A stretch of 60,349 nucleotides of DNA, the filler included, from Dugesia japonica (Eukaryota), in assembly GCA_001938525.1 (NCBI GenBank). It is 6 parts of 6 records of this genome, joined end to end, with 100 filler letters (N's around TTAATTAATTAA, not from the genome) between each part and the next. Parts side by side here need not be neighbours in the genome. Positions count along the whole stretch, not along the records: positions 1 to 9,515 come from MQRL01547338.1; 5 more parts are not named here. One strand, written 5' to 3'. Of this stretch, positions 1 through 51,885 are shown in pieces. The notes beneath the pieces are model-generated. The model made no database searches. It saw nothing but the letters and a program-made list of their open reading frames with translations, and was not told the origin of the DNA. A program made the translations under genes and the position numbers. Numbering within the stretch: position 1 is the stretch's first letter; every line of letters begins with the position of its first letter.

Positions 1-12
1 AAATCATCAATG

Positions 13-323
13 CCGAGGAAAAATTTGACCAAAACGCCAAAAAATTACCCAAACCAACCAATCCCGAGGAAATACGTAACCAAATTCATCTGAATCAATC
101 AAAAATTGATAAAATCGTCCAAAGATTGACCAATAGTGCCTAGACCGAGTAAATAACTGACCAAATCGTCCAAAGATTACCTAAACTGGCCAAAGCCGAA
201 GAAAAATTTAACCCAATCACCTAAAAATTACCCAATCTAACCAATCCTTAGAAAAAATTAGACCAAATTCACCTGGGCCAACGAAAAATCAACCTTATTC
301 CACCTCACCGAGAAAATTTTCGA
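13..323. repeat. Degenerate satellite-like tandem repeat (~180-bp period built from ~30-bp AAAAATT-ACC subunits)
   Basis: gccgaggaaaaatttgacc at 13 recurs as gccgaagaaaaatttaacc at ~194, and the following sequence also aligns; runs into an N gap. Confidence 0.6.
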
Positions 324-576
324 NNNNNNNNNNNNNNNNNNNNNNNNNNNNNNNNNNNNNNNNNNNNNNNNNNNNNNNNNNNNNNNNNNNNNNNNNNNNN
401 NNNNNNNNNNNNNNNNNNNNNNNNNNNNNNNNNNNNNNNNNNNNNNNNNNNNNNNNNNNNNNNNNNNNNNNNNNNNNNNNNNNNNNNNNNNNNNNNNNNN
501 NNNNNNNNNNNNNNNNNNNNNNNNNNNNNNNNNNNNNNNNNNNNNNNNNNNNNNNNNNNNNNNNNNNNNNNNNNAT

Positions 577-701
577 TAGAAAAATTTAAAAACAGTTATG
601 TAATAATCTCGCGACAAGATTAATTACATTATGTAACGCACACAAATGATCGCCGCCGTCTATTTACAATAGAAAAATTGAAAAACAGTTATGTCATAAT
701 C
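577..701. repeat. Pair of ~32-bp direct repeats
   Basis: tagaaaaatttaaaaacagttatgtaataatc (~577) and tagaaaaattgaaaaacagttatgtcataatc (~670). Confidence 0.7.
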
Positions 702-769
702 CGATTACGTATAGGGGCATGGGGGTTCTACTGAATGTGTGCTATTCTTTACCTCCACTATCTATCTAC

Positions 770-983
770 TTTGTAATCGAATGCTTTTAATATTATACTA
801 CAAATATTCTGTTTTTAAAGGTTCTTTACATCCCATTATTCTACAATTTCCTGATTTAAAAAATATAATAGTATATTTGCCGCTTTTATTAACAACTTGT
901 GATAGTTTTCCTGAAGGAAAGTTTATCTTTTTGGTGACTTCTTGAGATACTTTTCCCCTGTAATTATTATTAACAATTATCAT
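770..983 (-). pseudogene. TBP (TATA-binding protein)-fold gene, N-terminal repeat, truncated; part of a Polinton-like module
   Basis: MIIVNNNYRGKV...YTIIFFKSGNCRIMGCKEP resembles the TBP repeat motif LIFxSGKxVxTGAK; after a stop it continues YNIKSIRLQS (like TBP FKIQN); homologous to 46535-46662. Confidence 0.6.
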
Positions 984-1082
984 TAATAATTAATAGTTAT
1001 TATTGGTATATATATACTAGGGTTTTGTTGAAAGTACCTTTATTCATTTAAACATTATAAACATAATAGTAATTTATATAAA

Positions 1083-1716
1083 ATAAAAAAGGAATTGAGA
1101 AATGATGCCGTCTATCAAATTGTTGGTACAAGTGGTAGTAGGAAAAACCTTGTTTGTAAATAAATTATTGAAATCACATTTATTCAAATTAAAATTCAAC
1201 AAAATATACTGGCATAGAGGTGCGGATGAGGAACATGGTTTAACACAATCAGAATTCTGTAATATAAAAATGAAAATCATAAATGGATTCAATGAAAGTT
1301 GGAGAAAGAGATTAACCAGAGGTGATGTAATTATAATAGATGATCTATATCAAGAAGCCAACAAGGAAAATGACTTTAAAAATTTATTCACAAAGATATC
1401 CAGACATTGTAACATGGCTGTGATATTTATTTCTCAAAATATCTTTCATCAAGGAAGTAGTCATAGAACTCGAAACTTAAATGTGCAATACTTGGTTCTA
1501 TTTAAAAATCCACGAGATCAAACAGTAGTTGATTTTCTAGCAAGACAGGCCTATCCAAATAATAGAGAATTTCTTATTGATTCATTCAATGATGCAACAG
1601 TAAATTCGCATGGCTATATTTTTATAGACTTTACACAGCAATGTCCAGATGATCTTAGGGTACGAACTGATATTTTCAACTCAAAAGGAATCACTGTATA
1701 TAAACAATCAAGGTAA
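1083..1716 (+). pseudogene. A32/FtsK-like DNA packaging ATPase of Polinton/Maverick (adintovirus) type, with a +1 frameshift in Walker A
   Basis: Upstream frame (I)KKELRNDAVYQIVGTSGS, an extra A at 1140, then GKTLFV rebuilds Walker A GTSGSGKT; Walker B VIIIDDL; LFTKISRH, ISQNIFHQG, NVQYLVLFKNPRD, DAT..HGYIFIDF and RTDIF are typical Polinton ATPase motifs. Confidence 0.9.
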
Positions 1717-1734
1717 TTATATATATTTATAAAA

Positions 1735-1925
1735 ATGTCAAAATTTTAAAAAGTTATAGTTTATTAAGTAAAGCAATTGAAAACTAATGTTCTTCCAAAG
1801 GTCAAGAAGCAGATAAAGAAAAAACAAAAAAACAGATCAAAGATTTGAACAAGTTTAAAAAATTAGCAAAAAATTATGGAAAGAAAATATCAATGAAAAA
1901 TGGTAAATGGTTAAAGCTATAAAAA
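1735..1925 (+). pseudogene. Decayed small Lys-rich ORF downstream of the ATPase
   Basis: MSKF*KVIVY*VKQ...KNYGK; same position as, and similar to, ORF 44046-44240 (MTKLKKFVVDQV...KKYGKK). Confidence 0.45.
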
Positions 1926-1954
1926 AATGAAAGTAATTTATTGTTGTGAAAATG

Positions 1955-2190
1955 AAATGAAAACAAATTATTCCGTTTTTTACTGCATTGCTCAAGTCTC
2001 CAAAGAAATCGAGAAAGAATATTTTATAAGCATTTCCATCTTTTGTTATTAATGATTTGCTAGAGATTATTGTAAATGTAGTTCGTGGAAATGTAAATAT
2101 AAGCAAAACCAAAACACTAGTATTGAAAAACCACAAGAATTCTTTATTATCAATAGTAAAAACAAAAGATTAATAAGAAAAGTATTAGGG
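1955..2190 (+). pseudogene. Polinton-type small basic (virion core-like) protein remnant
   Basis: QIIPFFTALLKSPKKSRKNIL*AFPSFVINDLLEIIVNVVRGNVNISKTKTLVLKNHK resembles the EI..N.L.GN small protein that follows the ATPase in animal Polintons; contains an internal stop. Confidence 0.6.
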
Positions 2191-2619
2191 CAGCACTGGA
2201 ACATTTGGACTTTGTTTTAGAAATTTCTCAATCAATTTTTGTTAAAAAACAAAATTATCATTGGAATACCATTGCATAATAAAAGAAAGGGCAAATAATA
2301 AAATGATTTTTGTAAAAAAAACATGTCTCAAAGCTTACCTAGTTTTAAAGAATTATTTTTATTTTCACTTTGTTCTATNNNNNNNNNATTGTCACCTACA
2401 CTATGTTGAAACAAACTGTCAACTTGCAAACTAAAAACACCAATTGAATGCAATGCAGTGCCGCTAGTGGTAATTTTTGTACTACATATAATAGATAAAG
2501 TGCGTAGCTTAAACAGGTAAATTCGTAATATGACAATTTTTATGATATCGTTTAAAGTGTAATGACTTGGCCTATCTCTTTGTGCAATCAGCGACTCAAT
2601 CAAACGTGACGGCAAAAAG

Positions 2620-2790
2620 TTAATAAGTATTAATTCTTTGAAACTTTTATATATTCTTCTACAATTATTACAAAAAGAATTATCAGTTAATAAACATGTT
2701 TTTGAATAAACATGTGATGTTAAACCAGCTTTGTTTTTACATACACGATTACAATGTGTGTAAATAAATTCTGTTATTTTTATAAACAAG
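2620..2790 (-). mobile_element. Zinc-finger remnant, probably the C-terminus of an RTE-like non-LTR retrotransposon ORF
   Basis: HCNRVCKNKAGLTSHVYSKTC followed by CNNCRRIYKS. Confidence 0.4.
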
Positions 2791-3292
2791 AACTTTTAAT
2801 TGGATAGATATTTGATATTGAAGGTATTTATTAAATGGTGATTGCCAAAGCTTTGACATATGTTGATAGAAAATAAGTAACTTTTGGCTAACTATGTAGT
2901 AAATATGAGTACGTGTTGACTTTGCGCTTACTGCTTTTTATTAGAAAAGTAAGAATTTACACAATTAAATTTTTATTGGCGTACTTATAAATAAACAATT
3001 TTTGTTCTTATTTTCTGTAGCTTCTTGCACTTTATGAATTAACAAAACTAGCAGAAAAAGCCTTTAATAACGGAGATAATATTTGTCACAAAATTTATTT
3101 TCAATTTTAAAATGGAACCCATAATTATATTCGAAAAGCGTTAAAGTAGGCCAGTCAAAAAACAATCCCATGTCCGATTCAACAACATTCAAAAATACAA
3201 TGCTAACCAACTGCTTCAATCCAAAATATTTAAAACCAACAAAGAATATTTCTTTACTTTACTGTAAAATTATATTCTGTGGCAAAGTCAAT

Positions 3293-3620
3293 TACAGTCA
3301 ACCCTCATTAATCCGAAACATTAGAAATCGATTTCATTTGGATTGTGAATTAATTCGGATAATGAAGGAATTTAAATTCTATATGATCGCCAGATTAATG
3401 ATGAAATTATTAAGAAAATGACAATTATTTATTTAAAAAATCATCTAAAGATTTTTGTAGAGTTTTCTTTTGAATAAATTTCTGTAAATCAACTTTGACT
3501 TCTTTTAAATTTTTTACTGTATCATTGGTTATTTTTTGAGTAAAACTGTTTGAAGAAAAACTTGCTTTGATGACAATTTCAATTGCGTGGAATAAATTGC
3601 TTGGACAAATGTTGTAACGG
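3293..3620. mobile_element. Tigger/pogo-like element end
   Basis: TA|CAGTCAACCCTCATTAATCCGAA with an internal inverted copy ttcggataatgaagg, typical of pogo/Tigger termini. Confidence 0.5.
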
Positions 3621-3779
3621 TCATGTAATCTAGTATGATATGCTTTTATTTAAAATAATATAACTATTTCAGTATTTTTTAATCATCTGATTATCCTTCT
3701 GCTTTTTTGCTTTTTTTGTTTCTTTTTATTTAAATAAATTATATTCAAATCCATTGTTAAAGAATAATAATTCAGCATA

Positions 3780-3962
3780 GAATATACTGATCTTCTCATT
3801 AAAATATTAATCTCAATATTAAAAATATTGATCTAAACATTGAAAATATAGGTTTGATAGAAAATATGGGTATTATCTTGAAATTTTGGGTTTTTTCATG
3901 AAAATATTGGTTTTGCCAAGAAAATGAGTTTTATAATAAAAACTTTGGTTTTATCATTGAAT
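3780..3962. repeat. ~21-bp degenerate minisatellite
   Basis: Repeated aaaatattg(g/a)t(t/c)t..cattg units. Confidence 0.65.
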
Positions 3963-4019
3963 ATAAGGCCATTAAATTAGATATATTCAATAAACTACAT
4001 AAGGATTTATTAATATTTT

Positions 4020-7000
4020 TAACACTTAGACCAACACAGGGACAAGCAACTAATACTTTTTCAATTATTTCTTATTCAAACTAGATTTCGCTTCATTCTC
4101 ACTAAGTTTCTTTGCTTTAATTTAGAAAATTGATAGGTAAGAACAAGAGTGAGATTGATTAAATTTACTTTAACTAGTAAGATTTAATCTGAAATTTGAT
4201 AGTAGTCGATAAATATTGTCGGAAATTGCACAGTAGTCAATAAAAATTTCTGAAATTTTATAGTAGTCGATAAAAAGTTTATAAAATTGCACAGTAGTCG
4301 ATAATAATTTTATGAAATTGCATAGTAGTTCATAATATTTTGAAAATCCTATGTAAATGAATGAGAAAATAATTCAATTATTGCACAGAAGTCTCTAAAT
4401 TAATAAAAAATTAATTAAAAAACTAATAATTTCAAAAATTAATTAATTAAAAGTTAAAAACATTAATCGAACATTTATTAATAACAAAATAACTCTTCCA
4501 ATTTCTTCAACGATCTATCATAACCTANNNNNNNNNNNNNNNNNNNNNNNNNNNNNNNNNNNNNNNNNNNNNNNNNNNNNNNNNNNNNNNNNNNNNNNNN
4601 NNNNNNNNNNNNNNNNNNNNNNNNNNNNNNNNNNNNNNNNNNNNNNNNNNNNNNNNNNNNNNNNNNNNNNNNNNNNNNNNNNNNNNTTATTTTTTAACAT
4701 AGATAACTTGATGTTACGTTTAGAAAATAATTCCATATCAGTTCTTGATGATAAATCTGGTATTTTAATAGTAGAAATCTCATGAAACATTTCTCTTTGT
4801 AGAATTTCAGCTTTTTTAATCTGATGATTTACTTTGGAATTTGATAACGACTTTTGGATATTGAGAGGTTTTAATTCTTGCAAAACTTTCTAAAAGAAAA
4901 AATTCAAAACTTTTTATTATCATTTTTATTGTTAAGCATTACTTGGCATTTATCTGACTTTAATTTTGATAATTTATTGTTTAAATAATTGATAGTACCA
5001 TGAAAACAACTAATTTCTGATAAAACTTTATTATCAGACTCTTGAATATGATAACTGTTGTGGACTGGAAAATGTCAATTAAATGAAATGAGAGCTAGAA
5101 TGAAGAACAGACCTGATGTGGAGCCAAGATCAAATGAATCTTTATCTTTAGCGTCTGAAATGCGTTTAATATCGGTTTGCATCTGTGATAATTTTTTTAC
5201 TAATTCGGATACTTTTTCACTTTCAGTTCTAAATATAATCCTTTAAATATTTGTATAAGTTATGAAACATTTGGTAATACTATTTTATAATTATACTAGC
5301 CAAGTTATCAAGTTTATCAGGTATCCAAAATGAATTTAAAAAATGAAGTTAAATAAATTTAAGTTAGTGATAATATATTTCACCCACCTGTATTATCACT
5401 TTATCTAATTATAAAGTAAAATTTACTTATTGAACGAATAAAATTATTATTATTATTATAAAAAAATTTATTATTATTATAAAAATTATTATTATAATTT
5501 TTACTCCCCAACATTACATTCTACATATTTTCATTTTACATTAATAGCATTTCAAAAATTAAACTTTAAATGAAGTACTCTTGATATTTTGGATTGTTAT
5601 TGGTAAATTTTTTTATATTTGTAGCATAATTTCTCAACATTTTATTGTTTTACAATCTCCTCTTAATGAATTCAGTCACTCTACTATTGCCATATATTCT
5701 ATTTTTATTAATTATATAGTATACCTAATATAACAATAGAAAAATATATGTAAAAGATAAGAGAATTTTTCTTACTTCTTTTCAAGGTTCTCTAATTTAA
5801 TAATTTTGTCACTCAGTTGTCGTATTTTTATATCCCGACTTTTAATACCGTCCTCATATTTCTTCTTGATATGATTTACTTCTAGAATACTTTCTCCCAA
5901 AGAACTCGATTTCTTTTGTAACTCCATATTAAGTAATGACAATTTTTCATTTTGTTTCTTGATCTCCGAAGGTAAAGATGAAAGGAGGCCACATTTTTCT
6001 CGATAATTACTAGCAATCAAATCTATAGAAGAAGAAGACTGAAATATATTTTCATAAAATGAATAATTTCAAGATTTTAGTACTCGTGTAATTGTCTTGT
6101 CTGTATCATACACTCCGGACTTGAAATTTGCAACGATTTCTCCACTTGATTGCTCTATTGAGTTTAGTTTCCATATTATTTCAACTAAAGAAATTTCGGA
6201 TGAATGTAATTGGAATTTGCAAAGAAGTTCAATTATTCCATTGATTGCTTCATCTGGTATGATATTTTCCTTATATTCATTTATCTTTAACCAATATCAA
6301 AAGAAACTTTCTTACATCATTTAATTGCAACCCATAATCAGCAATCGGTAGCACAATATCGATCATATTTATCGCAATTTTATTCATAGATTGGCAAAGA
6401 ACAGAATCAAATGTAATTTTTTGATTTTGTCTTAAAAATACTAATGAACCTTTCATTTTTGAATAAAGGTTTGTCGAAATGGCTTGCATTTTGATAAGAA
6501 AATCTTTGAGTTGCTTGTCAACAGTCATCTAATATAATTTATAGTAAATTGTATTTTTGAAAATAAATGAGAGATGTAGCACTGATTATTATCTGAGAGC
6601 GTGAAATATCCAAAAACGATAAAGTTCGAATGAGAATTGACAGAATGACAGGGATTCTCTGTAATGGTGAAAGAATTGTTAAAAATTAGATAAAGGCAGA
6701 AAATGAAAAGTTTTTAATTGTTCGGTATAATCATATGATCATCTATTGAGAACGATTGTTCTTTTCTTCAAAATGAAGTAAACTTACTTAACAACTTAGA
6801 TTAAATGAAAATGGAAATATTAAAATATTAGAATCAGGAATTTATAGTTTACCATTTTTAAAGCTCTGCACGATCTAAGTTGAATCATAAATGGAGTTCT
6901 TAAAATATTGAGAAGTTTCTATTTCTCATTAATTTGTTATTTCTGTAAATATTTTCAGCATTTTATGATAAATTTTTCATGTGAAATTATTTTCTAATTT

Positions 7001-7708
7001 TATTCATTACAAATTTCTACTGTAGATAGTTGTTAAATTTTCCATTTTCTGCTTTCATTTAATTTAAATTAAATTAAAACAAAAATAACTATAAAAAGTT
7101 AAATAAAATCTCACATTTCCAATCATCTTTGTAATCCATCTGAGATCGTTAGAGAGACATTCAGAACCTTTCATTAAAACCTTGATAAAGTCATTCATTT
7201 TGATGTTACAATCAGCCGGTTTCGTATTAAATATTTCATCATAAATTTGTTTGAAATATGTTATTGATTGGATAATATTAGAGAAATCTCTGTTGCAATC
7301 GAGATTTTGGTTTTTGATCAAGCCAATTAGCGAATCCAAACTTGTTTCATGTTTTATTATCTCTTTATGGTAATTTGCAATTGTATAAAGAGATTCCGGA
7401 GAACAACACTCAAGATTTCTAATAAATCCATCAATAATTAAAACAAATGAAATTCTACTACATTTGTAATTGTTTTAAAAATCCTTTCCAAATTAATAAT
7501 AATAATTCAGTTTTATACTGAACACTGATATTTTCATGCTTTTCTTCTATGGAACCACCATGTCTAAATCTTCGTTTTTCAGATATCTGAAATCAATNNN
7601 NNNNNNNNNNNNNNNNNNNNNNNNNNNNNNNNNNNNNNNNNNNNNNNNNNNNNNNNNNNNNNNNNNNNNNNNNNNNNNNNNNNNNNNNNNNNNNNNNNNN
7701 NNNNNNNN

Positions 7709-7765
<57 letters not shown>

Positions 7766-8269
7766 TGAAGAAGAAGAAGAATCCTAACGATAATAGCATT
7801 AATGATAATGATAATACTAATAATAATAATAATAAATAGAAATATGAACAGTGATGTTAATAATGTTAATATTAATAGTATAAGTAAGAAATAGTATTAA
7901 TGATAGGAATTTTTGTATATTGACTCTTCCTAATGATAACAATGTTGAGGTAATCATTAAACTGAATAACTATGACATATTATCTAAGGAGTCGAAGCAT
8001 GGTTCGTAAAGTTTATCAACAACGAGGATAATAATGAATAAAACGATATTAAATCTCGATATTTAATATTATAATAATCAATAAATTAATTAATAATTTA
8101 TAAATAATAAATCTCTATATTAAATTATAATAATTATAATAATTATAATAATAATAATCAATAATCAATAATAATAATAATCAATAATAATAATATTATT
8201 AATAGTAATCAATAATAATAATAATAATCAATAAATATAATAATCAATAATAAATAATAATAAATAATA

Positions 8270-8319
<50 letters not shown>

Positions 8320-8369
8320 NNNNNNNNNNNNNNNNNNNNNNNNNNNNNNNNNNNNNNNNNNNNNNNNNN

Positions 8370-8430
<61 letters not shown>

Positions 8431-9515
8431 TTAATAGTAATCAATAATAATAATAATCAATAATAATAATATTATTAACAGTAATCAATAATAATAATAA
8501 TAATCAATAAATATAATAATCAATAATAAATAATAATAAATAATAATAATAATAATAATAATAATATTAATAGTAATCAATAATAATAATAATTAAAATA
8601 AAAACTTACATAATCCAAAATCAAAGATATTTTGTCCATAAATCGTTTTACCACTAAAACAATATTAATAACGTCATATTCACCACCAACTCTCGAGAAT
8701 GTTGTCGGCAAATATTGGGTTATCAACTTGATTTGTAAATATTTCTGTTCGAGATCTATTTTCATCAATTTACCGTCAATATCCTAAAGTTTCATAATAT
8801 AAAATGATAAACATGTATTACATATGTATTATTACTTGTTTTATATCAGCTTCTATTGATTTTTGTTTGGCATAATTGATAATTGAAAACCTACGATTTG
8901 ATTCTTGTGCTCTTTCTATGATTTCATTTTTTCGAGNNNNNNNNNNNNNNNNNNNNNNNNNNNNNNNNNNNNNNNNNNNNNNNNNNNNNNNNNNNNNNNN
9001 NNNNNNNNNNNNNNNNNNNACATTTTCTTGCTGTTTTTCATAGAATGAATTTTGGAGTTTAATAAATTGCTCATTAATACAATCGTATTCTTCGTGTAAA
9101 CTTCTCATTTCTTTGTTTTTAGTTTCTATTACTTCGAGATTCTTATCTTCTATACGATCCTAATTCACAAATAATAAATTTAAAACAAAAATACTAAATC
9201 TACTAATTCGATTAATTTTTTATTCTGTTTTCTCAATTCCTCTTCTAAATTGCCATTAACGAATGTTAACTTATCTACAATAGCTTGTGCATCTGCAGTG
9301 CTATCGACTAAATCTTTCATTTCTTTTAAATCTCGTTCATATTTTTCTAATTTTGTTTTCGACGTCTCCAATTCTGCTTCTTGATAAAATTTTATTTCTT
9401 TTAATATTTCCAACTAAAATAAATATTTCCTTATTTAAATGAGACTGATTACATTTCTAATATAACCTCTGCATCTTTCTTTTTACTAATTTCTTCTAAA
9501 CTCTTATTGTCTTGA
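4020..9515 (-). CDS. DCTN1: Dynactin subunit 1 (p150Glued), multi-exon, 5' part cut off by the scaffold end
   Basis: Exons encode QDNKSLEEISKKKDAE|LEILKEIK...LVDSTADAQAIVDKLTFVNGNLEEELR (cf. [26 protein letters not shown]), YLPTTFSRVGGEYDVINIVLVVKRFMDK (cf. [25 protein letters not shown]) and VANFKSGVYDTD (cf. MQEGEYDAE); GT-AG introns of ~30-60 nt; 3' end approximate. Confidence 0.88.
4172..4335. repeat. ~30-bp minisatellite, probably intronic in DCTN1
   Basis: Five to six copies of (ca/ta)gtagtcgataa..tt..gaaattg. Confidence 0.8.
7709..8592. repeat. (AAT)n microsatellite-rich intron of DCTN1
   Basis: Long AAT runs with internal duplications. Confidence 0.9.
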
Positions 9516-31882: not shown

Positions 31883-33746
31883 CATTTAAAAGATCGAATA
31901 TTTCTTGACCGAAATATTTATCAACGCTTGTATTGGCAGCAGCTATTTGAATTAAATATTCATTTCGACTTTGGAGGCTTTGAATATTTTGTCTTGAATT
32001 AAAATCGCATTTCTTTATAGAAATTTTCGTTATTTATATGAATTATTAAGAATCTATTACTTGATTAAAGTCTTCTTTTAATTTTCTAATTTTTTGACTT
32101 TTATCTAGATCTTTATTTTTATCGTGTGCCCTCTTGCGTTCTCTATCAAATTTTTCCTTACTTTTATCCATAACTTTTTTCGAATCCTCTGCTAATTGAT
32201 ACGAACTACAATAATCCCTATAACTAGTTGTCAATTTTGATGTGGTGAGTAATACTGTTGTTTGACACAATTGGGCTAATTCCCTTGTCTAAAAGTATGT
32301 TCAACATTGAATGATTTTAGTTTTAGATTACTTGTTTATGTGCTCTAGTGCAATCTTCTTGTAGATCTTGTAAACGTTGAGTCATTTGTCGGGAATATAT
32401 GTCTGATAAAATTTGATGTGCAGCTGCAGTTTGGCTTGTACTTTCTAAAAGCACATTTAACAATGAATGATAAGAATATTTAGGCCAATTTTGACGTCTA
32501 AAAATAAAATAGAATTATAATAATGATATTCTAATGTTAAATATTAAAATATTTCAAGAAAAATTTAAAGGTCTAAAAAATTGTTTATTCATTAGTTAAA
32601 TTGAATACTAATAAATTTCTAAAAAAAATTTAATTCATCAATTCATTGATATTAAATATTGATCCAAATTATTTAACAATCGGTACAATATCGTGGAAAA
32701 TCTAAAAAATACTAATTGGAATGGAAAATTAATATGATAAAAACCCAGTGTGTTTGCTTGTGTNTGATGCCAAAATTTTTGAATTTCAAACCTCGAAACT
32801 AATGATACAAATTTATAAAAACTCTGAAACGTCATTTCAATAAATATTTTTGTACTACATTTCAGAGTTTTTTTTTAAAAAATTACAGTTTTTCTTTGAT
32901 TTATATTATATTTATATTTATTTTATTGAACATTTATTAAAGATTAAAAATTTGAAAGATTTAATGAAAATAATTTAGAAAATNNNNNNNNNNNNNNNNN
33001 NNNNNNNNNNNNNNNNNNNNNNNNNNNNNNNNNNNNNNNNNNNNNNNNNNNNNNNNNNNNNNNNNAAAGTTATTAAAAATAACAAGAAAAATTTATAAAA
33101 GCAGATAATTTTAAAAATGAGAATAAAATTCTACAAATTTTGAAAACAATAAAAGAAATTAAAAAAGAAATATTGTTTGTAACCTCCAAACCGTGGGTAA
33201 CGCTGATTGCACGACCCACTTACTTTGTACAATTCCGTGAGTTACGCTATTTCATGTTACTTATAGCCTTTTTCTGATATTTCAGTACCGATGGGCTCAA
33301 TTTCTATAACATGTAACTATTATAAATATTCAATAAAAATATCAAAAGATTTTTTTTACAAAAAAAAATGAAAAATCGCCGCGGCAGGATGGTTAAACTT
33401 GAAACTAATTTTAAAATAATTTAGAAATTTTACCAGAAATTTTATAATCACTGTTAAAAATTAGAATCATTAAAACTCAGTTGAATATTTTTAAAATTTT
33501 CCAAAAACTATAATCAAATTATTCAAATCATTCAAGAATTATTTTATTTATTATAAACTTGCTTTGTTGATTCTGTATTAAGTTTCTGTTTACTGCTTTG
33601 AACCAATTTATTCAAGGCATCAGCGTATTCTTGTTCGAGTACTGCCCGTTTTTTATAGAATTCCAATAAATCATTAAGATAATTGTAATCCATTTCCCAT
33701 TTACTATCCATACATTTAAGCTGTTCGGCAAGTTGAGTTCTCAATA
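31883..33746 (-). CDS. SRGAP: SLIT-ROBO Rho GTPase-activating protein (srGAP family), F-BAR exons; downstream exons not found on this scaffold
   Basis: LRTQLAEQLKCMD..LNDLLEFYKKRAVLEQEYADALNKL, RQNWPKYS..HQILSDIYS..RLQDLQED and SRNEYLIQIAAANTSVDKYFGQEIFDLL match srGAP F-BAR motifs; four exons at ~33563-33746, 32332-32497, 32062-32288 and 31883-32016. Confidence 0.85.
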
Positions 33747-35364
33747 CTAAAAAGAATAATTTTAATTATTTTTTAATTGAATTGTTAAGAAATGTTAACC
33801 CAAGAGATTTTGAATTAAGAAAAAAAATTCTATCACTTATCTAATGTAAGTGGGGTTATAAATAGAAAACAGAGATTAAATTTTCATTTATTTGAAAATA
33901 TTACAGAAATTGTTTTGAATAGTTTTTGAATAAATAAATTTGAACTAAAGCAATTCACAGATTTAATTGAATTACTCCAGAAAACCTTTTCAAGTCATTA
34001 GAAAAGTGAATATGGTTTATTATTAAAATTTGACCACATAAACATTTCTTTCATTTAATGATAAATAATGTTTTCTTTTATTTCTTAGTTATTTTTTGCA
34101 ATCCGAATTTTCGACGATATTCTTCAGAGATTTACTTTTTTTTAAAAAAAGTACACATTTTGATGTATGATTTTTAATTTATTGAAACTTTAGTAATACG
34201 ACCAATAGTTAAGTCCAACAATTATTCTCGCAATAATTGCAATTGTAATTAATATTGCATTAATAGAAATCTAAATAAAAATTTTCGATAATGTTGAATT
34301 AAAAATAGAATTGTTAAAGCAATTCAATCTGTGAATAAAAAACATTAATATTAATGNNNNNNNNNNNNNNNNNNNNNNNNNNNNNNNNNNNNNNNNNNNN
34401 NNNNNNNNNNAATTCTATCGTTCGAAAATATAAATAGTTTCATTGAGAAGTTTATATTTATCTCGAATACTTTGGCGTCATATTGGTAAACTTTAAATCG
34501 AAATATAGTTGTCAGCAGTTATTCTAAAACAAGTACTACTTTGTAATAAACTTAAATTTATTAGAAATATTTATTTAAAATATGGTCTTATTTTTTTTGT
34601 TTTTTCCCTGTTAGGAATTTATGAAAACGAATTTATGGAATGCAGGTGAAGCAGGCCCAATTACATACAGGGTTTCATATTGCATTTTGAAATGTCCACA
34701 AACAATTTTCAAACTTTAATTTATAGATTTGTAAGGTTTTGAGTGTTTCATAAAAACCAGAATTATTATTTTAGAATTCTTTGAATATATTTATCAAGAA
34801 TATATTATTAGTTATTAAAAAATTCGATATCAAGAAATCTAAAACTTGTTTAAGAAAATTCGATAAACTCTATTTAAATAATATATTATACTATAATTGG
34901 CGTAATGATTATATCATAATCTACATCAATAATTTCTTTTAAAATATTATGTATGGTATTCAGTTAAGCTTAGTCTTCCTATACCACCTTTAAGCTTACG
35001 TTCTACTCTACTTTCATTTATAAAAAGGTTAATAATAACATACATAATAGTGTCTGAAATTATCTTTTTAAATNNNNNNNNNNNNNNNNNNNNNNNNNNN
35101 NNNNNNNNNNNNNNNNNNNNNNNNNNNNNNNNNNNNNNNNNNNNNNNNNNNNNNNNNNNNTTTTTTTTATTTATTAAATTTTGATATTTTATTATGGTAA
35201 ATTAGTTTTTAAAAATTTTTAGTTTCTTTTAATATTGTTGAGTTGGAATTTTTTGAAAAATTGTAATTGCTTATTTAAAGTTATCTTAATTAACGTAATT
35301 TGGAAATCATTTGATTTTTATATCAAAAATTTTGCGTTGGAATTAATTCAAACATTACAAATTT

Positions 35365-43819: not shown

Positions 43820-44045
43820 NNNNNNNNNNNNNNNNNNNNNNNNNNNNNNNNNNNNNNNNNNNNNNNNNNNNNNNNNNNNNNNNNNNNNNNNNNNNNNNNN
43901 NNNNNNNNNNNNNNNNNNNNNNNNNNNNNNNNNNNNNNNNNNNNNNNNNNNNNNNNNNNNNNNNNNNNNNNNNNNNNTTCATCTTTATTTATTAAAATAA
44001 TACATACCATTTATTTGTTTATAATCTTTTTTCTGTTCATCATTC

Positions 44046-44240
44046 TCAGCTTCTTTCCGCTTCATTTGGCAAGTTTTTAAACATATTCCTTTTATTTACT
44101 TGTTGCTTCTTATTTACATGAGGTTTCTTATGCGATTGTTTCATCTTTTTTCCATACTTTTTCTTCTCAAAAGATATTTTTTGACGTTTAACAACACCAT
44201 CAGTTACTTGATCAACTACAAATTTCTTTAATTTGGTCAT
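44046..44240 (-). CDS. Small Lys-rich ORF following the Polinton ATPase C-terminus
   Basis: Open 64-aa basic ORF 20 nt after the ATPase stop; same position as 1735-1925. Confidence 0.55.
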   Translation of the reverse strand: MTKLKKFVVDQVTDGVVKRQKISFEKKKYGKKMKQSHKKPHVNKKQQVNKRNMFKNLPNEAERS

Positions 44241-44260
44241 TTTTGAAATATTATGAAAAA

Positions 44261-44314
44261 TTATCTATTTTGTTAATATATTGTGATACCATTTGGATTG
44301 AATATATCTGTTCT
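44261..44314 (-). pseudogene. C-terminal fragment of a further Polinton-type ATPase copy
   Basis: RTDIFNPNGITIY*QNR* versus RTDIFNSKGITVYKQSR* at the end of 1083-1716. Confidence 0.8.
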
Positions 44315-45839
44315 TTTTTAAAATAAATGCAATAGGTATGCCACTTAAATACAACTCAGAGTCAACACACATACACTGAAAATCACATGCCTAGGATATT
44401 TTGACTGCCCCATACCATACAAAATATCAAGACTGTCCCATCTCATACATAAATATAAAGTCTTCTTAAAAAAATTTAATTAAATTTAATTAAATTAAAA
44501 AAAAATCCCCCCCCCATTTGAAAATAAAATTTTAAATTCCCCGCTAAAAAATATTTTTTCAAAATTTCCCGCAAAAAATTCAAAAATAATCAAGACTCCT
44601 CTCTTCCCTATTCAAAATATATTAAAAACAACCCTTCCCATCCAAAAATACTCAAAAATATCATTATTTTCAACTAATTCATCATTTTAAGCAAAATACA
44701 GCATTTTTACCGAAAATAAAGATTTCAAACATTATTACGTCTTAAACTCGGGCAGAAAAATTTCAAATAAAGCTTATAAAATCCGATAATTTATTCTCTT
44801 TTCACACATACCTTTTTCCCCCTCTCGAAAAATTCTTTTAACACACTTATATTACTTACAAATATCAACCAATCAATTTCGGCCACAACCAATCAGAAAT
44901 TAAAGCACTATTGACATCCCAATAATTTACCATCACATTAACTTTCCAATAACCCATCAACCCCTACAAAGATACACTCTCCCAAAGAACACCAACAAAT
45001 ATATTCTGATTATTTAAAAAATATTNNNNNNNNNNNNNNNNNNNNNNNNNNNNNNNNNNNNNNNNNNNNNNNNNNNNNNNNNNNNNNNNNNNNNNAATTC
45101 TTATTAGTAGAATAAATTAGAAAATTTTAAATTTAAAAAACTTGACTAACTCGAGACTTTCAACGGGAGATACGTTGCCAACTGTGGTACTCTCTTCTCA
45201 CCTGTTATTATTTCTATTAAAGTTTCGCTTTATGCACCAGTTAAATTTTTATGTTTCTCGCTAGTTGATGCGAAGTACGATTTTACAAAGTATAATGATT
45301 TAGAATAAGTATAAAATATCCTTACAAATTACATTAAATGAAAATTAAAATTGAAAAAATACAAATCTAATTTTTTTAATAATAAAACACTCAGTGAGCC
45401 ACCAAACTTCTAGAGAAAACCATCCATCCAACCTCATAAGTCCTTTAGACAGTATATAGACCACATTTTTGTCCAACAACAACCAAATCATAAAAACTAC
45501 AAAAAAATTATTTCCAAGATCTCCAGCAATCACTCGAGTCCAAATTCATTCTTACATACACACAAACTCAACTTGACCTACTTTAAATTAACTCACTTAG
45601 CAACCCAAACACACAAATTTTAAAATTTAAACACATACACACACTCTAAGATCAAAAAGACTGACCTGATCAGAAAAAATGATCCGATCAAAAAATCTTT
45701 GATCCCAAAATCTTAGAAAAAAAACAAGCACAATCGTATTCAGTTTCCGAGCCCCCCTCAGGGGTGGGGAGGGGGGTTGTAAATTGTGCTTGTATGCTAC
45801 TATCTACCTACTATTTTAAGAAAATTACCTATTTACCTA

Positions 45840-46449
45840 AGAAAATTATCATTTTGATTGAATATGTCTATTATCACTCCATAGTCATTTGGACATTGTT
45901 GTGTAAAGTCAAGAAATAAATATCCATGAGGTGTTTCTGTTGCATCTTGAAATGATTCAATCAGAAATTGTATGTTATTTGGATATGCTTGCTTTGCTAG
46001 AAAATCAAAAGCAGTTTAAACTCTAGAATCTTTGAATAACACCAAATATTGCACATTTAAATTGCGGGTTCTATGACTACCTCCTTGATGAAATAGTTTT
46101 TGAGTAATAAATATCGCAGTCACATTAAGATGCCTCGATATCTTTGTGAATAAATTATTGAAATCCTTTTTCTTATTTTTCTCCTGATAAAGATAGTCAA
46201 CAACAATAACATCACCTGGTTTCAATCTTTTACTTTAACTTTTATCGAAATTCTTTATAATTTTCATTTTAATCTTATAAACCTCAGATTTAGTCTTTCC
46301 ATTCTCTTCATCTGCTCCCTATGCCAGTATATGTTTTTAAATTTCGAATTGAATAAATTTGATTTCAATAATTTACTAACAAACAAAGTTTTCTCGCTAC
46401 CACTAGGCCCAAACATTTGATATACTGCTTCATTTCTTAATTTTTTCAT
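45840..46449 (-). pseudogene. Second A32/FtsK-like Polinton packaging ATPase, decayed
   Basis: MKKLRNEAVYQMFGPSGSEKT, GDVIVVDYLYQE, FNNLFTKISRH, HRTRNLNVQYLVLFK and DATETPHGYLFLDFTQQCPND; frameshifts and stops. Confidence 0.9.
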
Positions 46450-46534
46450 CTTATTTTTTGAATTTATTAATAATGCAGTACATATTTTATATTTGTTTTA
46501 ACGTATCAATTAAATTAATTCAATCAAAACTCCA

Positions 46535-46945
46535 ATGTTCCTTATTAATATATTTTTTGTCATTAATCATAGAGATGAAGTGACGCAAGAAGTAACAAAA
46601 ATATGAGCTTTCGAATAGGTAAATATTGACATTTCAAAGTTAAAAGTGGCAAGTATACAATTACTATACAAATTTGAATGTCTAAAATTTAGGATGGTTG
46701 ATATATTATTAAATAATTATATTCTTTTAGAACCCTATAATATTATTCATATGCAAATCGTAATAAATTAGTAGAAATTAGCAAAAATATCAAACTGATG
46801 GTTTGAATCAGAGTTATTTTCTTCTTTAAAATATGGTCTTTTATGTATAAATATGTTTTCATCAGGAAAACTAGTAATACTAGGACTTAAATATTTGAAT
46901 TTCCAAGGTTATTTGGATAACATTATTTCAGATTTATTCATTTGA
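46535..46945 (+). pseudogene. TBP-fold gene (both repeats represented), decayed, head-to-head with the ATPase
   Basis: N-part INHRDEVTQEVTK/NMSFRIGK..KSGKYTI matches 798-983; C-part IN**KLAKISN*WFESELFSSLKYGLLCINMFSSGKLVILGLK matches TBP repeat 2 (YEPELFPGL...IFVSGKVVLTGAK). Confidence 0.7.
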
Positions 46946-47386
46946 TTGAAAGAATTTAGAAACTTTGCAGCACATATGCAATACAAGTACAACTTAATTA
47001 CAAATTATATCAATTTAAATTTAGATATTTAATTATCAAATAATTAAATATATTACGTTGTGGTTTTTTTATTATGTATACAGAGTGTTAGTTAAACATG
47101 GGGCAATCATATATTGCAATTCGTTATTAATTTTCTTCTGAAATATGAATATTAAATTGTCAAGTTTTAAAGAAGAATATATATAAATATATATATATAT
47201 ATCAATTTTACCTGGTCTACTAACATCAGACAAAGAAAAAATAAATTTTGCTCATTTTTTAAAATTTTAGCTTTTTATCTATGATCAAGTGTAAGAACTA
47301 TTCTTCTCTTTAAAAGGTCAGATATTCAAACGTGTTACGCTGCACGAAAATCTATCAGATCAGAAGTGACGGAGAACCGATTCAAA

Positions 47387-49280
47387 ATGGAAAACACTAA
47401 TCAAAATCAGTATATCTCAAAAGGCGACGTCAAGGAAGTTTCGATTTTATTGGAAATAATCATACAAAAATTGGCCTTACTTCAACGGATTGAGCCAAGC
47501 TCAGAGNNNNNNNNNNNNNNNNNNNNNNNNNNNNNNNNNNNNNNNNNNNNNNNNNNNNNNNNNNNNNNNNNNNNNNNNNNNNNNNNNNNNNNAGACACAC
47601 TGGATGGCGCCGCCAAAATACCGAATACAAGTAAAATGTTTTCGTGCACTTTGCACAAAATTGGTAAAAATTTGAGTAAAAATTTTAGTAATGTTTTATC
47701 TAATATTACTCATAATTACCTTTTCGTAAACAACTTTGGTAACATTTTATTTAAGAATCATGTTAAGTTTTCAAAATTTATTGAATGTTTGTCATTATTT
47801 CTCTCAGAATGTTCCTCTCGTGACAATTGTAATTAAAGAATGCATGTACTTATTTGTAGATGTTAACGTTTTAGAAAATTATTGTTGGAGTAACTTTGGT
47901 CTTGTGAATGACTTGTATACTGATAAATCAAATATTAATACTGTATCAGAGTCTCCTGGTGCCCCTTATACTGTACCCTTTATTTGTCGTAACCATCGTA
48001 AGTTTAAAGAGGAAACCAGAAATTGCAGTAACCTTAAATTTTAAACAAAAGACTTATTCTTCGAGCAATGAAATAAACAATTCTTTCGTTAAAGATAGGG
48101 AAATTTTACTTAACTTATCTGCTAATCATCAAACCGTTATTCCCAGTACTGTGGTTGAAACTCCTACAAATTCTGCGATTAAAATAAAAAAAGCCTTTGA
48201 GAAATTCTGTCACCATCACAGTTAAAACTCCAAATGCTGGAAACATTGAGGAAAGTGCTCCAATCTCCAAAATAAATGCAGTTTTAACTAAAGGAAATAC
48301 TCAGAAAACAATGGGAAATTTTCCATACATCAGGCAAATATCTTTCTCAATCATATAACTGATCAAGATATTCCGCTCGACTCAGTTCTTATCTCCAATC
48401 ACAAGAACTTCTTAAATCACATTAAAAATAGCAAAATGGTTAAAGAAAACATTCTGAATTCCACAATTCATAATTATATGAAGAATCCTGAACTTCTATC
48501 TCAAGATATCAGAAAATGCGATTCGTTTTCAATAAATTTCTGAAAAAAGATCATAAGCTGCCTTAAAATTCTCAATATCATAAAATCTATTACTCTTCGG
48601 ATTTATTCCTAATCAGGAAAACTCTACAAATTCGAATACTCGGGCTTCTAATACTTTTACTATAGAACACCTTAACTTAATTGGTAATGAAATTGAAAGC
48701 AGAATATCTTCTCTATGCTATGGTCTAGGTAAAGTGGCCAAAATTAAAATTAACTCATTTATTGAAGACTTTACCAAACTGGTAGCAATTTCCAAATCTG
48801 AGAACTTGCATCTTGACACTATGAATTTACTCCATAAAATGAACTCATGGGAAAAGCTTTCCAGTCTTAAAACTCTTTCTCTAAACGAAATTACTGAAAT
48901 CAGAAAAATCTGTCGCATGAACAGAATCAAATTTGGAAAAGTCTCAGTTCACAACATTCTCTTCCCTTAAATCGACTTATTTTTAAAGTTAATCCTACAG
49001 AAACTGTCTTCACTGACAAATCTGTTACGACTGAGGGAAATATATCCTCAACAAATATTCCTGCTACTTCTAGTCCTCTAGATCTATCTATCAATATTAT
49101 CAGTGACTCGAATACTGATATTTTTCAGAATCTCAAGAATCCATACTGAACTCTAGCACTATTGCCTCTTGAATTGTGAAGGCTAGAGAAACTAAAGTCA
49201 AACATTCTGAACCTTTCAAAGACGATTCTTCAAAAAACGCTCCTAAATCAGATTGGCAAAATATTCGTTACTTTTAATAA
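47387..49280 (+). pseudogene. Long decayed intronless ORF of unknown family
   Basis: Overlapping same-strand ORFs (47366, 47736, 47908, 48734) with coding-like composition across frameshifts. Confidence 0.45.
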
Positions 49281-51304
49281 ATGTATTATTTTGTATTTAG
49301 TTTCCTTTCTTTTAATTTAATTTTTTTGAATTTTATTTGAGTTTTAATTTTGTATGTTTCTGAATTTTTAATTTTTATTAAAATTTACTTGTTAAAACAT
49401 ATTTACTTAAAAATGTTTATAGAGTTTTATATATGATTTATTAGATATTATGCTTTTTCAATGGATGTTTATTTATTCTTATAAGGTTTTTATATAGTAT
49501 TATAAAGATTATAAGAAATTTAATGGGTTTCATACTGTTTTTATGGAGATTTATTGAATCATATAAAGTAGTTATACATTAGTTATAGGTTTATATAATC
49601 TAATAAACCTGTTAAACTCCACACATGATAAACTAATGTACATAATAACTCAATCCAATAAAACAGATAATATATAATATATAATACAGATAATATATCG
49701 TAACTATGTAAATATTACACGGTTAAGGTAAACAAATACTTAAAAATTTTTAAATGTCTGAAATCTAGGATGGTTGATATATTTTTATAGAAATTTAATA
49801 AAGGTTTTTCTTTTTAGTTTTATATAGGGTTTTTTAGATATCATACTCTTTCTATAGATGTTTACGTATTCTTTTAAGTTTTTTTATATAGTCTTATAAG
49901 AATTCATACGGTTTGTATGGAGATTTATTAATTTTTATAAGGTATTTATACAGTAATTTTAAGTTATGCAGGGTTTTTAATGGACTTATAATCTAATAAG
50001 CAAAAAATCTAATAAAGAAAAAATAAGAAAACATTAATTGATAAAAGAAATAGTTTTCAAAAATTTAGAAAACGAATATCAAAAAATAATTTAGTTAATC
50101 NNNNNNNNNNNNNNNNNNNNNNNNNNNNNNNNNNNNNNNNNNNNNNNNNNNNNNNNNNNNNNNNNNNNNNNNNNNNNNNNNNNNNNNNNNNNNNNNNNNN
50201 NNNNNNNNNTTTGTAAATCGAAAATCAAATTTCATAAAAACATTTATTCATTACAGCATTATCAAATTAGAGTAATCTGACCAAATTCTCTCCACAATTA
50301 TTACTGAGATTATCCATATTTCTCTACAAAGCAATTTTTTGTCAATCCTAAATTGTCATCGTGTAAATACCAAATCTCCTCACTAAAATTAAATCAGATC
50401 AGATAGATAATTGTCAGCCAACATTTAATTGTGTTCTGGAAATCAAACAACTACTGAGCCGTCTCTCAATCAGAAAACTTAATCCTCGAACAATTATCTC
50501 ATAACGAACAATCATCCTCAGCTAATTTCCAGTCCATTTATCTGACAGTTTAATCAACAACAATTTTGACAATAAGAAGCTCCAATTATTTCTATTAAGG
50601 ATACTATATAAAGCAGTGCAAGCAGGTTACAAGACACTCGTCTATCCGAAGAAGAAAAACTTATCCCCATTATTATTCTTTTAAAAAAGAAAATCAGTCA
50701 TAGAATCGTTTCCAACCCAATGTCCATCTATTCCAAGAAAAGATCCATCAAGTTTAGTTTCGTCAATCAAATCAACAATCAATTCTCCACTATCATTACA
50801 TCGTCCATGACAGTATGTACCTTTTTATTTTATTATATCATTAAATCTTAACAATATAAATGTCTTAGTTTTGCAATAATTTTGATAGATTTTCGTCTTT
50901 AATATGCCTAGAATAAAATTTATTATCACATTAATATGTATAACCTGTTATGCTTATATTATTCCACACCAAAATTTGTTGTTATCGTTATTATAATTAG
51001 TATTAGGACGATCAATGTTTAATTCTATTTCGTTTAATACTGTTTTCGTAGATCTCTCCGAAGGCAATTAGTTAACAAAACATTAAACCTATTGTACATT
51101 TTTGTGAAAAATATTATAATTACAACTATGAATTTTCTCTTTTTTGTATGTATCTATCTTATTTGATACATACGATAGTAAGTTTCGTAAAATTTGCTTA
51201 ATTTTAATTACTTTAATTCCATTTAAATCAATTTATTTTAAATGATTTGTTAATATTTTTATTGGTTTTTTATTAAATTATAATAAAATGTATTTTATAT
51301 TTTT

Positions 51305-51404: not shown

Positions 51405-51885
51405 AGTAATTAAATTACCTTTTATTAATGAGAAATGTAGCCAAATCATGCAAAATATAATTAAAAAATCTAAACTAACACACGATCCAAGGATTATATT
51501 TAAAACACAAGCACCTTTGGGCATACAATTACAGAAACCAAGACAGAATTTTTGTGGTCCCAAATGCATTTGTGATGGTAAAAATATATGCNATAAAAAA
51601 GATATCACTTACAAAATAACATGCATCTTATGTAAGGATACATATATAGGAGAATCATTCAGAGCCATCCGTACAAGAATTAAAGAACATATCAAACAGA
51701 AAGAAAGTAAAGTCTTCAAACAATTTCAAAACAAACATAATGTTTTACCAGAAAATCATCATATTACATGGAAAACATTAGGAACAGGCTACATTTCTAC
51801 ACTTCCCAGAAAGAAACATGAACAAATATTAATTAAAGAGGCTAAGCTCCAGATCAATGTGGTGTTCAACATATATAATAATTAA
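51405..51885 (+). mobile_element. Penelope-like retroelement, C-terminal GIY-YIG endonuclease
   Basis: IKLPFI..., CGPKCIC..C.KKDITYKITCILCKDTYIGESFRAIRTRIKEH ... RKKHEQILIK...IN. Confidence 0.9.

Follow-up and report, generated by a model that had tools for sequence, protein, structure and literature searches.

Whether Mavericks (Polintons) are viruses with a regulated productive cycle has long been an open question. The sections of PMC8097293 used here state that particles have not been observed for vertebrate Mavericks, list eight core genes for these elements without a TATA-binding protein (TBP), and describe terminal inverted repeats that end in (AGT)2 or (AG)3, flanked by a 6-bp target duplication. 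A TBP label on a Polinton-related genome map is already in print: in Starrett et al. 2021 (PMC8502044) the legend to Fig. 5 marks a gene of MELD viruses with an adintovirus-like PolB as 'similar to TATA binding proteins', and the same label stands in the Fig. 5 and 6 legends of the preprint 10.1101/697771. In the portions of the article used here the label is confined to the legend, with no accompanying text, family analysis or promoter, section 3.2 does not count TBP among its accessory genes, and we compare it with our proteins by label alone. Our own literature search, conducted mostly outside subscription papers, turned up no account of a TBP family in Polintons or of a promoter belonging to it. 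In large dsDNA viruses, TBP-like proteins share with the proteins described below a viral TBP fold and the loss of the first-lobe regulatory signature; they mostly occur together with a viral TFIIB, and their TFIIB-contacting glutamates are variable, the first being conserved in about 40% (Ravarani et al. 2020, PMC7221094, in the text used here). The words polinton, maverick, adintovirus and virophage are absent from four supplementary files of that paper. The herpesvirus viral TBP, KSHV ORF24, is a TBP mimic whose DNA face is polar; it selects late promoters and works with host RNA polymerase II (Pol II). It carries additional domains, forms a complex with Pol II and ORF34 in advance, and according to the published model is incompatible with TFIIB binding (PMC12529657, in the parts used here).

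The locus described here is a decayed fragment of an integrated Polinton, and we lean towards the reading that the TBP-family protein of about 150 residues encoded by its intact relatives, which we call mini-TBP, serves as the element's own late-gene switch. The window, by which we mean the whole 60,349-nt stretch of Dugesia japonica DNA that we analysed, consists of AT-rich scaffolds of about 10 kb each with 100-nt spacers at the joins. The features around the first copy are as follows.

575-770, minus strand: end of a different repeat element, AGTAGATAGATAGT first, then a C-run and two 32-nt repeats; it adjoins and truncates the copy 1 TBP gene
771-983, minus strand: copy 1 mini-TBP pseudogene, reduced to the first lobe (roughly residues 1-71 in intact relatives), 67% identity to P0007
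1007-1016, minus strand: TATA-like run some 25-30 nt ahead of the TBP start codon, seen in the sequence
1056-1063, plus strand: TATAAACA box before the ATPase, at the position where 18/18 related ATPase genes have ATAAAC
1083-1716, plus strand: copy 1 A32/FtsK-type packaging ATPase pseudogene (Pox_A32 17.5 bits, E 0.003, sub-threshold)
1699-1706, plus strand: second TATAAACA box, seen in the sequence within the last ATPase codons, ahead of the Lys-rich ORF
about 1735-1922, plus strand: broken Lys-rich ORF, in the same place and with similar ends (by eye) as L029:2351-2632
1952-2260 (end approximate), plus strand: broken small basic ORF, placed by tblastn and gene order in cluster C17 of related loci
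2323-2378, plus strand: probably the beginning of the short ORF that in relatives overlaps the start of the integrase (by eye, no score), stopping at an assembly gap

The first-pass annotation had described a minus-strand ORF with a TBP motif about 100 bp from a plus-strand ATPase, followed by a Lys-rich ORF and a small basic ORF, and all of these are present. The IIFFKSGNCRIMGCK motif lies in the minus-strand frame starting at 983, divergent from the ATPase with about 100 nt between the two genes. This TBP-like gene has an in-frame stop at 798-800 and is severed at 770/771, and its remaining piece scores 12.7 bits against PF00352, below the cut-off of 22.9; it is nevertheless 67% identical to the intact protein P0007 over 75 residues (E 2e-36). 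The initiator-like TCAYW found before the TBP genes of relatives is absent before this copy. The ATPase has an open frame at 1102-1716, comparison with intact relatives puts the homologous start near 1083, and a frameshift spreads the Walker A region over two frames near 1130-1145, the remainder being open. It is 59-73% identical to the 12 best intact ATPases, one of which (from L013) passes Pox_A32. The small basic ORF matches a conserved ORF of related loci by tblastn (48% identity, E 3e-16 over 1952-2170), which in relatives (L029, L054) stands after the ATPase and before the integrase; the Lys-rich ORF gave no tblastn match at E 1e-3. At the start of the same scaffold (window 1-323) there is a repeat of coding-like composition whose period is about 183 nt, and dynactin exons (PF12455) lie at about 6000-8800 on the minus strand.

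That the divergent pair recurs on a second scaffold, as had been reported before, is borne out at about 45857-46945, where the ATPase DNA is 76.6% identical to that of copy 1 over 577 nt. A third scrap of the same element family lies nearby.

43978-44345, minus strand: third scrap, with ATPase tail, Lys-rich ORF, TATAAACA at 44016-44023 and the beginning of the following ORF (74.8% identity to 1664-1771 across 111 nt)
45096-45812, minus strand: second AGTAG-type element end, adjoining copy 2 directly behind the ATPase stop
45857-46454, minus strand: copy 2 ATPase pseudogene, frameshifted, from sequence comparison
46535-46945, plus strand: mini-TBP pseudogene of copy 2, in which both lobes can still be traced (P0003 residues 75-143 matched at 54% identity, E 2e-19)

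The copy 2 TBP gene has several stops and frame changes and a degraded middle, and keeps E-S-E-L-F at the TFIIB stirrup. The IIFFKSGNCRIMGCK motif is recognisable in copy 1 only and the second TBP lobe in copy 2 only, the YATAAACR box is lost from copy 2, and its TBP piece, at 13.7 bits, is like that of copy 1 below the PF00352 cut-off. Both copies in the window are pseudogenes, dead fossils of the element, a point absent from the earlier description. The middle of the copy 2 TBP gene (46653-46711) resembles a nearby AT-rich repeat at 49728-49787 (83.6% over 61 nt). A six-frame Pfam search of 575-9515 and 45096-50100, a search of 97 ORFs elsewhere and tblastn with 425 ORFs of related loci found no polymerase, integrase, capsid or protease in the window.

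Ends of the form AGTAG(A/G)TAGATAGT plus a C-run occur three times in the window (at 770, 14173 and 45812, all minus strand) against 0.0004 expected, and two of the three adjoin Polinton genes. They resemble the published Maverick end motifs and equal neither (AGT)2 nor (AG)3 exactly; possibly they belong to another Polinton family that nests into old copies. We considered the end at 770 as the terminus of the TBP-bearing element itself and rejected this, as it has the opposite orientation and cuts the gene in its middle. No terminus of the TBP-bearing element was found in the window nor, by eye, at the ends of eight long contigs.

Intact relatives make clear what kind of protein these fossils encoded. 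A search that used the window pieces as queries gave 26 candidates with 6 proteins among them; five of these are intact, at 149-152 aa. All five full-length relatives pass PF00352 at 49-56 bits (P0007 at 55.7; cut-off 22.9), and a 101-aa fragment relative scores 21.1 bits. A wider search yielded 294 proteins with E of at most 1e-5 and, at the stricter limit of E 1e-10, 172 cluster representatives, with details taken from the best 120 of the 294 proteins and the best 150 of the 172 representatives. An AlphaFold2 model of P0007 built from 107 sequences (pLDDT 96) predicts a two-lobed saddle with a TM-score of about 0.7 and 17-24% identity to cellular TBPs; all 39 matches to PDB listed by Foldseek with E <0.001 are TBP entries (best E 2e-9), the next non-TBP fold follows at E 0.013, and the matches in the BFVD viral library are large-virus TBPs. 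The TBP fold proposed from the window alone is thus supported in the intact relatives by profile and predicted structure, and we assign the family, which we delimit by profile score, to this fold on the strength of the model. The gene had been taken for the trait of a single lineage; with 172 representatives under 70% identity, its distribution is wider.

In a quick tree of 65 rows (40 of the 172 representatives, 6 locus proteins, copy 1 and a thin outgroup of 18 rows without TRF2), all 47 family rows are set apart from the others by a branch about 1.5 changes per column long with SH-aLRT 100, copy 1 lies deep inside the family, and the family is separate from the sampled large-virus TBPs. As far as these sequences go, the tree rules out a recent host retrocopy and names no donor. 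The retrocopy check suggested by the first-pass annotation came out accordingly, given both this long branch and the low identity to solved cellular TBPs.

We then read the family column by column, reducing 266 proteins to 215 full-length family members and these to 172 representatives under 70% identity, with yeast numbering obtained through a plant TBP anchor (yeast number = anchor number + 41) and equivalences from MAFFT and HMMER alignments. Several columns that we take to face DNA are changed in a near-invariant manner: V122 to Arg in 165 of the 172, T124 to Met in 168 and L205 to Asn in 169, with further changes of V71 to Asn (128), N159 to Ser/Thr (169) and V161 to Thr/Ser (168). Three of the four wedging phenylalanines are kept, F116 in 167/172, F190 in 170/172 and F207 in 171/172, whereas in the F99 column, where the alignment is uncertain, Phe is outside the four commonest residues; we presume that F99, F190 and F207 wedge DNA alongside F116. 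The first-lobe helix-2 columns are gapped (R137 in 167/172, K138 in 168/172, K145 in 135/172), and the P0007 model likewise lacks a helix at about residues 51-65, where first-lobe helix 2 would be. At the second stirrup, E186 is acidic in 168/172 and E188 in 171/172, conservation that is partly selected for, as the EPELF stretch was scored by our searches. F116 is the wedging residue named in PMC7221094, and that paper, in the text used here, describes E186 and E188 as contacting TFIIB and also Brf1/Brf2, and the basic helix-2 patch of the first lobe as the surface for Mot1/BTAF1, TAF1, TFIIA and Brf. Sequence and model together suggest that partner surfaces have been lost on the first lobe and retained on the second.

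Set beside cellular TBP (PF00352; yeast 1ytb, human 1cdw, archaeal 1mp9), mini-TBP shares the saddle, three of the four wedging phenylalanines and both TFIIB glutamates, but it is about 30 residues shorter, lacks first-lobe helix 2 with its basic patch, does not keep the first phenylalanine and has polar residues fixed on its DNA face. By its model it is a TBP-fold protein, and it lacks two features of canonical TBP, the full set of four wedging phenylalanines and the basic helix 2. Unlike KSHV ORF24, it consists of the core alone and retains the TFIIB stirrup; by analogy it may work like the herpesvirus late TBP mimics, yet it is not one of them. Unlike most large dsDNA virus TBPs it keeps the glutamates and stands apart in the quick tree, and no TFIIB Pfam match was found among 95 ORFs of related loci, including four near-complete modules of 12-18 kb, although these contigs are partial and a divergent TFIIB could escape such a search.

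The related loci place the gene in a Polinton context. A metagenome scan gave 84 relatives, of which 80 were kept, and one locus from viral contigs (L001) brings the set to 81. At least one Polinton hallmark is present in 34 of the 80 metagenome loci and in 18 of the 21 that are 4 kb or longer, and four loci (L004, L013, L055, L062) each combine the TBP, ATPase, integrase, capsid and a member of the polymerase cluster. Pfam matches in related loci include rve, PF03175 and Peptidase_C5 (adenain protease); PF03175 is matched in L057 and L062, and ORFs of L004 and L013 were placed in the same cluster by BLAST. The capsid model (pLDDT 74) matches double-jelly-roll capsids at E 1e-13, a prediction consistent with a Polinton-type virion. 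Among adintoviruses the Alpha virion module is marked by PLA2X and the Beta module by GasderminX or cupiennin-like genes. PLA2 occurs in 10 loci of a more distant lineage and was not found in the covered parts of the loci closest to the window. With Polintons, Mavericks and adintoviruses (PMC8097293, PMC8502044, in the portions used here) the related loci share the ATPase, integrase, pPolB, capsids, adenain protease and PLA2, and the Polinton-type affiliation first proposed for the window is upheld by loci in which integrase, polymerase, ATPase and double-jelly-roll capsid accompany the TBP. Searches of viral contigs, including those with ATPase and capsid queries, found no locus of the mini-TBP family; the one locus that they returned, L001, is a large-virus contig with a near-canonical TBP outside the family. 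At 44.7 kb, L001 also carries heliorhodopsin, PolB and ribonucleotide reductase, a combination that recalls mirusviruses.

Gene order tells a different story from the one suggested by the window, where the head-to-head arrangement had been presented as a property of the system. An ATPase is present in 24 of the 81 related loci: in 20 it lies downstream on the same strand, in one upstream on the same strand, in one (a weak match) downstream on the other strand, and in two it is divergent with other ORFs between, the gaps being 436 and 1748 nt. A further 35 related loci have at least 600 nt upstream of the TBP gene without an ATPase. No locus (0/81) has the two genes directly divergent, and we reject a conserved head-to-head order. 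These 81 loci leave out the closest relatives of the window copies (67-80% identity), and because the loci of that sub-lineage are outside the gene-order set, divergent order may be one of its marks. From the sequences at hand, the head-to-head order in the window looks like a local, probably incidental arrangement.

A further signal lies in the DNA upstream of the genes. We compared de-duplicated 120-nt upstream windows from related loci, all of them chosen for the presence of TBP, and the most enriched 5-7-mer was ATAAAC, present in 64/68 virion-module windows vs 18/94 others. It stands before the ATPase in 18/18, the major capsid in 9/9, the minor capsid classes in 6/7 and 5/5, the protease in 4/5, PLA2 in 8/9, the small basic gene in 9/10 and the integrase in 10/12, before exonuclease-like genes in 7/10 and the polymerase in 1/3, and before TBP genes in 5/47 only. 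The 18 ATPase windows form 6 groups at 80% identity and 3 at 70%; controls gave 0/18 for the ATPase antisense strand, 5.9% for random windows and 1.4/18 for shuffles (maximum 7). The base preceding ATAAAC (n=67) is T in 41, C in 24, G in 2 and never A, and the base following it is A in 54, G in 12 and T in one, which we write as YATAAACR. The box ends 25-31 nt before the ATPase start in 13/18 and 10-11 nt before it in 3/18; the latter spacing is a bad fit to the geometry of a TATA box at minus 30, and the box may have an initiator-like role.

The box can lie up to 110 nt inside the preceding coding sequence, and there it fixes synonymous codons (27/37 Ile-Asn pairs vs 46/371 elsewhere; also 26/26 vs 14/32). 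TBP genes have upstream motifs of another kind, a TATA plus TCAYW pair in 19/47 windows vs 2/68, TCAYW being what we liken to the animal initiator; both this test and the codon test were framed after the motif had been seen, and the loci are related. Virion-module genes and the TBP gene have different upstream motif classes, which speaks indirectly for the putative late-gene role suggested in the first-pass annotation. The window still has the box at 1056, 1699 and 44016, each time before a gene that has the box in relatives or at the same position, and YATAAACR shows no enrichment across the window as a whole (18 vs 21.4 expected). We rejected a polyadenylation signal as the identity of the box: A precedes 0/67 boxes compared with 96/402 ATAAAC overall, the box may lie far inside coding sequence, and the one at 1056 is not preceded by the end of any gene on its strand.

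We propose that the TBP gene would be made early from an ordinary host-type promoter with TATA and the initiator-like TCAYW, and that mini-TBP would then bind, through its altered DNA face, the YATAAACR boxes that precede the genes for ATPase, capsid, protease, PLA2 and integrase. There the two retained glutamates of its stirrup would let it recruit host TFIIB and Pol II, and it may escape Mot1/BTAF1, TAF1 and similar regulators because the basic helix of its first lobe is gone. In the window, the head-to-head order would have an early and a late promoter share 100 nt. The connection between protein and motif that we draw here is one of co-occurrence, as seen in the sequences. For the broader claim, that a large branch of animal Polintons runs an early-to-late programme with one 150-residue TBP that keeps the host-TFIIB handle and reads YATAAACR, we consider the chances about even.

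Another model is that the box is read by host TBP or some other factor, and that the viral TBP acts as a decoy, soaking up TFIIB or occupying host promoters and so damping host transcription. TATAAAC, the form of 41 of the 67 boxes, is a TATA variant close to the host TATA box that host TBP could read, and kept TFIIB glutamates beside a heavily changed DNA face would suit a decoy. Nonetheless, 24 of the boxes start with C, the TBP gene itself avoids the box, and the changes on the DNA face are near-invariant rather than scattered, as expected of a new specificity; on balance we regard a decoy as unlikely. Mini-TBP might instead run the late genes with a TFIIB or other partner encoded by the element rather than with host TFIIB, in the manner of giant viruses or herpesviruses. 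Most TBP-bearing viruses do encode TFIIB (PMC7221094, in the text used here), and several conserved neighbours of the gene are without a Pfam match, but the 95 ORFs, four near-complete modules among them, gave no TFIIB match and the cellular-type glutamates are almost invariant, which makes such a partner rather improbable.

There is a slim chance that the protein has no part in reading the late box and is a DNA-bending factor in replication, integration or packaging, for example at the termini, or a recruiter of the Pol III adaptor Brf. The glutamates do contact Brf1/Brf2 as well, and the TBP gene is often found among replication-type neighbours (exonuclease-like and beta-rich ORFs); against this, the late box would be left without a reader, and without helix 2 the protein lacks part of the surface that the same pages of PMC7221094 assign to Brf. 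That the ORF is a recent host TBP retrocopy or a chance motif beside an ATPase we hold to be barely conceivable: the window pieces alone do fall below the Pfam cut-off, but 67% identity to intact element proteins compares with 17-24% between family and cellular TBPs, and 47/47 family rows lie beyond the long branch of the quick tree described above, with its 18 outgroup rows and no TRF2.

If the late-switch reading is correct, mini-TBP would be a one-protein viral late-transcription system, unlike both the herpesvirus complex that bypasses TFIIB and the TBP-TFIIB pairs of giant viruses, with its YATAAACR box written, even into coding sequence, before nearly every virion gene. On present sequences it would be a variant of viral TBP-driven late transcription. 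A promoter factor with a matching box before virion genes would be a concrete, assayable switch, and the box would offer a sequence marker for late genes without an assigned function. The protein is also a natural experiment on which surfaces of TBP are dispensable as long as the TFIIB handle is retained. It is the family that matters, the window copies being only fossils.

Other features of the related loci are worth recording. In 8 of 15 integrase loci (L004, L054, L047, L002, L049, L009, L013, L029) a short ORF in a different frame overlaps the start of the integrase; this ORF starts with Met-Gly, has a Cys pair near residue 15-30 and is preceded by ATAAAC at 14-41 nt, and it could be a lipid-anchored virion peptide. 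Beside the TBP gene there are conserved beta-rich ORFs without a Pfam match in clusters C1, C11, C15 and C24 (for example L029:641-1015, L053:943-1713 and L030:1296-1865) that by eye are like single-strand DNA-binding proteins, and C5 and C1 have the appearance of two exons belonging to a single gene. Accessory genes in TBP loci include a ubiquitin-conjugating enzyme (L013:225-719), a leucine-rich-repeat protein (L030:1918-3327), a KilA-N protein (L062:7145-8002) and a dual-specificity phosphatase (L012:4008-4316). Elsewhere in the window we noted an F-BAR exon at 33547-33765 on the minus strand and a piece of a GIY-YIG nuclease at 51595-51882 on the plus strand, perhaps from a Penelope-type element.
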